Source: Escherichia phage EcF-vB. Taken from it: a stretch of 64,000 bases of DNA. Position numbers and translations under genes: made by a program. Of this stretch, positions 36,411 to 38,009 are shown piece by piece. Position 1 is the stretch's first letter; the number at the start of each line of letters is the position of its first letter. Location: sequence record PV683228.1. One strand, 5' to 3'. The notes under the pieces were generated by a model. The model was not told the DNA's origin, did no database searches, and was given only the letters and a program-made list of their open reading frames with translations.

Positions 36411-38009
36411 TCAACGTCTAAGCCCCTCATATGGGTTTCCTCTCACTAAGTCTGTGTGAGCACCCATTGATGGTGGCTTGAATAATTTAACTTCGTTAAG
36501 ACTGTTGAAAGCATCACTGGTAGCATCCACTTGGTCATCTTTAGTTTTACCATCACCACAAAAGCCTTCAAGTTCTTGAAAATAAGCTTCATTCCAACTA
36601 CCTCTCAAGACTTTTACAAGTCCAGCCTCAGAAGCAGCAGAAAATCCCGCAAAGCGGGTAACTTTATCTTTATTTGTTGGTTTAGCTCTTGCACGATATC
36701 CTTTCTCGGCAAGTTTCCTGATGAGGGATGTCGCGTAGGATTTACCAGCAGCGCCTGGGTCTTGAGGGATAAAAATACCAGTTCGCTTACCGTCACTTTC
36801 AGCAGTCAAATTAATTTGTGTTTCGACTCCAGAGGGTCTATCTCTAAATCTTACTACATCAATGATATAATAGCAACCGTCTTTTTTAGATTTACCCATC
36901 TTAACACCTGCTGTCCAGTCTGGATTAGGGTTAACCTCAGATGGTAGAGTTGCTGCTAAGTCCCATGCTCTAACATCGAATACATCTTCTGGGAGTGAAT
37001 CAACAATTTCACACCATTGTCTTTGCCAATAGTTTGAACCTTCTGCACGAGCCTTCCAGTTACCGAAACGAAGTCTTGCAACGTTTACAGGAGTGTTGTT
37101 TTCAAGCTTACCGCGATACTTTGGTTCTAGAAGTCAAGAATTGGGTTATCATCAATCGTACCAGAGATGAAGGTGTATGTTTGAGGAATCTCAAGAGGGA
37201 ACATTTCAAGAATCTTGTCTCTCTCCCAATCAGAAACCATCACACCGTCATTCATTACATACCAACGAATACGACCACACTTTTCAGGGTCTGGGTAACC
37301 TTCTTCATCTAAGAATGGTTCTACCCAATCATAAATAAAGTGGTCTCTGTCTGGGTTCATGGAAATCTTCATGTATGAATCGCCTTCAGCACCAGAACGC
37401 AGACGGGTTTGTAGGTATGAAATCTGTGAAGCAGAGAAGTGTGTACCTTCGTCAAAGTAAATAGCTGAGTATTCAATACCCTGATGACCTTCAGCGTGCT
37501 TTTCAAGTTCTAGATAGGTAAACTTGATAGTTGCCCAGAAGGGAATGTGATAGTCATTTTCTGCTCGTGAGGAATCCCACCAAACTTACCAAATAGTTTC
37601 TTTGCAGCAGGCCATAAACCACCTTGTAACTGTGTTGTGTTTCGACGGAAATACACAGCATTATAGTTAGGGTCTTCAATAAATCTTAAAGAGTCCATTA
37701 ACAATGCAGCAGTCTTACCAGCACCAGCAGCACCACCATAGAGAACCAAGTCAGCATTAGTATTTAAAAAGACCTCTTGAGAACCCGGCTGAGGAGCTAC
37801 ATAGTTCTTATCAGTCATCAATTTAAAGATAAGGCGAACTTGGTCTGGTGTGTATCTTAATAAAGTCAGAATTTGAGTTGGAAGGAATTTAGAGGGTCTT
37901 TACCGAATGACTTGATAATTTCTTTTACTTCATCAGAAAGCCCCAACTCTCCAGCTAGGACTTTCCTAACATCTTCCACTCGCTTCTGCTTAACAGCATT
38001 TAAGTCCAT
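36411..38009 (-). pseudogene. terminase large subunit, split into at least four frame-offset segments
   Basis: Walker A YGGAAGAGKT in 37510-37821 segment; nuclease-like C-terminal segment 36411-36899; N-terminal segment from ATG 38009; joined length about 533 aa. Confidence 0.7.

Follow-up and report, generated by a model that had tools for sequence, protein, structure and literature searches.

Felixounaviruses are lytic phages, and their large terminase subunit (TerL) is essential. In the four members that we examined in detail (Mushroom, Alf5, SPT-1 and warpig), TerL is a single ORF, annotated as one 1602-nt CDS and followed by the portal gene (TerL proteins YP_009600449.1 in Mushroom, YP_009288233.1 in Alf5 and QHR74495.1 in warpig). 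We compared these with the corresponding locus in a 64,000-nt stretch of Escherichia phage EcF-vB (PV683228.1), hereafter the window. There the gene occupies the same place, with the portal gene on its 3' side and a 66-aa ORF and the tRNA block on its 5' side, but it is without three single bases and is hence split as written.

Judged by nucleotide identity and gene order, the window is an ordinary FelixO1-like phage (Felixounavirus). The TerL region matched 270 phage records, 255 of which covered at least 80% of the region, with a best identity of 98.5%, and nearly all of these were Escherichia, Salmonella or Shigella Felixounavirus phages; no match to the same region was found in complete E. 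coli genomes. The best 30 matches listed (27 of them annotated) were 98.0-98.5% identical to the window, and all spanned 1804-1805 bases compared to 1801 bases in the query and had the three bases that are missing from the window TerL. The structural module (14000-38900) was collinear with many Felixounavirus members at 96-97% identity over 24.9 kb and 97-98% coverage, which exceeds the ~95% collinear identity expected within the group. In addition, 26 tRNA genes lie upstream of TerL, as in the relatives, and both the tRNA cluster and the structural gene order agree with warpig.

Several differences from warpig were seen outside TerL. The tail fibre protein (783 aa, 15176-17524, minus strand) shares only 76% identity with the warpig protein, compared to 98-100% for neighbouring structural proteins, and we take it to be the usual host-range variable region. 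The DNA polymerase (5425-8141, plus strand) is one continuous gene in the window, apart from an error at 6395, whereas the warpig enzyme is annotated as parts of 734 aa and 184 aa, with a 44-aa ORF between them and an overlapping HNH endonuclease gene. Neither the 44-aa ORF nor the HNH endonuclease was matched anywhere in the window, and the difference looks like the presence or absence of a homing-endonuclease insertion. The DNA ligase (9453-10742, plus strand) is split between CDSs of 63 aa and 374 aa in the warpig annotation, and the window gene has an extra gap near 9640, at the boundary between these CDSs, besides a break at 9829.

TerL lies on the minus strand (36411..38009), where six-frame translation reads it from 38009 to 36411 as four collinear frame segments, interrupted by three breaks, instead of as one uninterrupted frame. 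Using an intact homologue as query, tblastn aligned codons 1-39 to 38009-37893, 39-159 to 37896-37534, 157-294 to 37543-37130 and 294-533 to 37133-36414, at identities of 98.6-100%, with the stop codon at 36411-36413. The three frame changes are all in one direction and each reflects one missing base, which is why the gene spans 1599 nt as written and not 1602. The first-pass annotation had described a large terminase subunit gene broken by at least three frame offsets, and these searches put the number at exactly three.

Three-frame translation assigns the functional motifs to different segments. The first segment reads MDLNAVKQ...GKDP, and the 47-codon ORF that had been proposed from ATG 38009 is real. 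The second reads SKFLPTQ...LYGGAAGAGKT...TFPSG and contains the Walker A motif, or P-loop, YGGAAGAGKT (37711..37740, minus strand), which lies inside the interval 37510-37821 to which it had been assigned and in which GAAGAGKT conforms to GxxxxGKT. The third reads ATIKFTYLE...AIYFDEG...NPILDF and contains a Walker B-like motif, AIYFDEG (37445..37465, minus strand), with AIYFDE conforming to hhhhDE; the first start codon in this frame is ATG 37372, 3' of that motif. The fourth starts LEPKYRG..., resumes the reading frame set by the start codon and runs to the end of the gene (36414..37129, minus strand), encoding a linker and an RNaseH-like nuclease (Terminase_6C, aa 349-504). The earlier description of a nuclease-like C-terminal segment at 36411-36899 was therefore right about the nuclease but not about its start, because the frame segment begins at 37129 and 36899 is merely its first ATG, from which a 162-aa nuclease-domain ORF would be read. 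Directly downstream, the portal gene (34928..36403, minus strand) is intact and its product is 100% identical to the warpig portal protein.

The position and nature of the lesions can be read directly from a multiple alignment with Mushroom, Alf5 and SPT-1, which contains exactly three gaps in TerL, each of 1 nt, each within a run of the same base and all within 765 nt. At the first site (37894..37896, minus strand) the window has CCC where the relatives have CCCC, giving the protein junction ...GKDP|SKFLPTQ..., that is, KDP|SKFLPTQILTLL. At the second (37534..37536, minus strand) it has GGG in place of GGGG, and the junction ...TFPSG|ATIKFTY... falls between Walker A and Walker B. At the third (37129, minus strand) a single T replaces TT, which changes GAC TTC TTA GAA to GAC TTC TAG, so that an in-frame TAG arises at once at the junction ...NPILDF|LEPKYRG.... 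All three regions of frame change had been located correctly at first pass, although the first junction had been drawn as ...KDPLNSFQ/ILTLL, a few codons too far downstream of its actual position at ~37894-37896.

Restoring one base at each of the three sites produced a 1602-nt, 533-aa ORF without an internal stop. Its translation was searched against Pfam using gathering scores as cut-offs and matched PF03237 (Terminase_6N) over aa 91-335 (148.9 bits, E=2e-43; cut-off 22) and PF17289 (Terminase_6C) over aa 349-504 (114.9 bits, E=4e-33; cut-off 22.6), which bears out the identification as a large terminase subunit. The repaired protein showed 100% identity with its counterparts in Alf5 and warpig. 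From the genes of these two phages the repaired gene differed by 27 and 36 synonymous substitutions, respectively, and by 0 non-synonymous substitutions in both cases; compared to Mushroom and to SPT-1, it differed by 21 synonymous and 2 non-synonymous substitutions. Signs of a decaying pseudogene, namely non-synonymous changes, nonsense codons or larger indels, were absent from TerL in the comparisons with Alf5 and warpig, the three deletions aside. The exclusively synonymous differences from these two phages indicate strict purifying selection in an intact frame with no sign of gene decay, and a TerL that had genuinely lost its function would not be expected to give this substitution pattern.

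The same kind of lesion is spread through the contig. Comparing the annotated proteins of warpig to the window revealed seven further frame-breaking one-base deletions in six other genes: DNA polymerase (6395, A6>A5), DNA ligase (9829, T3>T2), a 160-aa gene of the structural module at 30259-30737 (30343, T6>T5), a 125-aa structural gene at 32354-32726 with two breaks (32554 and 32651), lysin (48560, A5>A4) and a small hypothetical gene (50095). The deletions at 32554, 32651 and 50095 comprise G4>G3, AA>A and one outside a run. Together with those in TerL, all 10 coding indels in the window are deletions, with nine in runs of at least two identical bases and seven in runs of at least three. A tRNA gene is affected as well: in tRNA-Phe (39378-39452, minus strand) the T-loop reads GGTTCAATCC compared to GGTTCAAATCC in the relatives, with one base missing at 39394, which is probably an error of the same kind.

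Because six other genes are broken by seven one-base deletions like those in TerL, the apparent clustering in the terminase, which the first-pass annotation had emphasized, is weak, and TerL is not special. Based on a simulated scan statistic (10 events in 51 kb), at least three events would fall within some 1.6-kb stretch with P ~0.25 and within some 765-nt stretch with P ~0.07. Three hits in TerL do exceed the number predicted from the remainder of the window (Poisson P = 0.0016), but this is an a-priori figure for a gene that was chosen post hoc. TerL also contains seven of the 39 G/C runs of length at least 4 in the 26-kb structural block, ~3x its share of the length. The neighbouring genes had been described as intact, and this held for the portal, protease, major capsid, tape measure and tail fibre genes but not for the 125-aa gene (two deletions) or the 160-aa gene (one); further off, it also failed for DNA polymerase, ligase, lysin and one more gene. 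Most large structural genes near TerL are error-free, so that errors are unevenly distributed over the contig, which counts against an artefact.

An inverted duplication of ~11 kb provided an internal control. It pairs about 41150-52236 (arm A) with 64000-53295 (arm B) and covers the tRNA block, a vWFA gene and the tail protein and lysin genes, all of which are single-copy in the relatives. A palindromic hinge at 52237-53294 (or 52246-53350) was considered and rejected, since this segment extends arm B along the relatives' genome. The hinge is thus non-palindromic and continues the second arm, which places the fold-back junction near 52245, as would result from a chimeric read or mis-join, and such an event at the contig end is the most likely origin of the duplication. 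In the outer 8 kb of the arms substitutions are almost absent, whereas 14 indel sites differ in the outer 8-10 kb, and comparison with warpig resolves 12 of these, 10 of them as a deletion in one arm. Such disagreement between copies of a single sequence is direct evidence that indel errors like those in TerL are present in the consensus. Toward the junction the divergence rises to 61 mismatches and 64 gap openings over a 3-kb stretch, and this part has the look of barely corrected long-read sequence. The arms also differ by larger segments, with ~1062 nt (42934-43995; tRNA-Asp, Tyr, Asn, Met, Glu and Pro) present in arm A only and ~720 nt (56290-57007) present in arm B only; these could reflect heterogeneity within the population, a mixture of related phages or artefacts in the reads.

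We also searched for the deleted versions in other data. Exact scans for the deleted k-mers of all three TerL sites gave 0 matches in IMG/VR, and the deleted k-mer of site 1 gave 0 matches in metagenome and genome contigs, whereas the intact site-1 k-mer was found in 27 IMG/VR contigs. Queries of 54-55 nt across each deletion had no 100% match among 50,697 phage records, with best matches at 98.2%, short of identity by a single gap or mismatch. A near-match that aligned without gaps pointed to GenBank record MG969404.1, 'UNVERIFIED: Salmonella phage GE_vB_7A', which carries no annotation and in which we examined 14361-18415. This Felixounavirus is the sole other record with the CCCC>CCC deletion at site 1, identical to the window, but its sites 2 and 3 are intact and it has a second deletion of its own (T5>T4, near window position 37770). 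It also differs from the window by 56 substitutions in 1.8 kb and is further off than phages with an intact gene. The greater distance and the different second deletion argue for recurrent miscalling of the C run over shared ancestry, and site 1 appears to be a recurrent miscall site.

Based on these comparisons, we infer that the deletions originated in sequencing or assembly and not in the phage DNA, and we consider it very probable that the broken TerL is an artefact of an unpolished, partly chimeric, long-read-like contig and not a real feature. The indels are single-base and deletion-dominated, mostly fall in runs and occur contig-wide, and the assembly contains two discordant copies of one sequence, as expected from consensus errors, which had been one of the two causes put forward at first pass. 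Three reports (PMC8812927, PMC9262707, PMC12007338) describe long-read-only assemblies as commonly keeping homopolymer-length errors, which lead to frameshifts and fragmented genes. The window resembles these descriptions in having single-base, deletion-biased and mostly homopolymeric errors in many genes, discordant copies and affected genes that are otherwise perfectly conserved. Unlike the homopolymer errors of such assemblies, some of the deletions in the window lie in runs of one or two bases, and the run at TerL site 3, only two bases long in the relatives, counts against an artefact.

The other cause put forward at first pass was a genuinely defective phage, in which the deletions would be real, TerL would be dead and the DNA would come from a non-viable or helper-dependent variant. 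The lesions are indeed present in the sequence as given, and public data do contain defective variants or errors, as illustrated by nonsense codons in the TerL of three metagenome contigs (L009, L010 and L011), which are, however, a biased sample, retrieved solely via an exact match to the truncated 162-aa product. These are short-read contigs (L010 and L011 from ENA) carrying the TerL of related phages, with a stop codon between WDLAAT and PSE in two samples and between VRA and DLAAT in one. We nonetheless regard a defective genome as very unlikely for a lytic Felixounavirus that depends on TerL. Three independent knock-outs within TerL, combined with 0 non-synonymous differences from two relatives with an identical protein, are unlike decay, and the absence of the deleted versions from IMG/VR (all three sites) and from metagenome and genome contigs (site 1) lends the idea no support. 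A defective genome would also require DNA polymerase, ligase, lysin and other genes to be dead, and the duplicated arms disagree in the same way, which is impossible as a real difference if both come from one genome. Real deletions would mean either packaged TerL-null genomes that co-infecting wild-type phage propagates or terminase expression by three non-canonical -1 recoding events, a reading that we consider highly improbable.

Recoding would preserve a full-length terminase by three programmed -1 frameshifts or by polymerase slippage at the runs. The three shifts do share a sign and sum to zero frame change, and two of the three occur at G/C runs, but an X XXY YYZ slippery heptamer is found at none of the sites (contexts A AAG ACC CTC, C TTC TGG GCA and GAC TTC TAG). 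Known transcriptional slippage tracts are far longer than runs of one to three bases. The frameshifts are also not conserved, given the single ORF in the four relatives and the 27 intact compared to 0 deleted occurrences in IMG/VR, and the same deletions strike unrelated genes and a tRNA; we therefore consider recoding extremely unlikely. There is an equally slight chance that several separate polypeptides assemble into a working enzyme. The internal ATG at 36899 would give the 162-aa nuclease-domain ORF, and gene callers report this product on six other contigs, all short and from different samples. In those contigs the call is due to a scaffold gap, a contig edge, a chimeric start (L008) or a nonsense codon, and TerL frameshifts were present in none of the six. 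Moreover, the second break parts Walker A from Walker B, and because there is no in-frame start before 37372, the Walker B segment could not yield a protein of its own. Programmed frameshifting was thus rejected on slippery-site and conservation evidence, a split terminase on the parting of the Walker motifs and the lack of a start codon, and pseudogene decay on substitution evidence.

Under the preferred explanation of consensus error, the draft contig of a lytic FelixO1-like phage would have kept one-base deletion errors, most of them in short homopolymers. Three of these would fall in TerL (CCCC>CCC, GGGG>GGG and TT>T), each moving the apparent frame by one, and an intact 533-aa gene would hence appear as four pieces. 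The actual phage almost certainly has a normal single-chain T4-like terminase, with an N-terminal ATPase and a C-terminal RNaseH-like nuclease, which would package DNA through the portal encoded by the adjoining gene.

A lytic phage whose essential packaging enzyme carried three frameshifts would be remarkable if the deletions were real, but none of our results supports this. The finding matters only for quality control, in that the contig is unfit for claims about gene content, pseudogenes or recoding until it is polished. As it stands, an annotation pipeline would output a fragmented terminase, polymerase, ligase and lysin together with an inverted repeat of 11 kb, and the phage itself is unlikely to have any of these.
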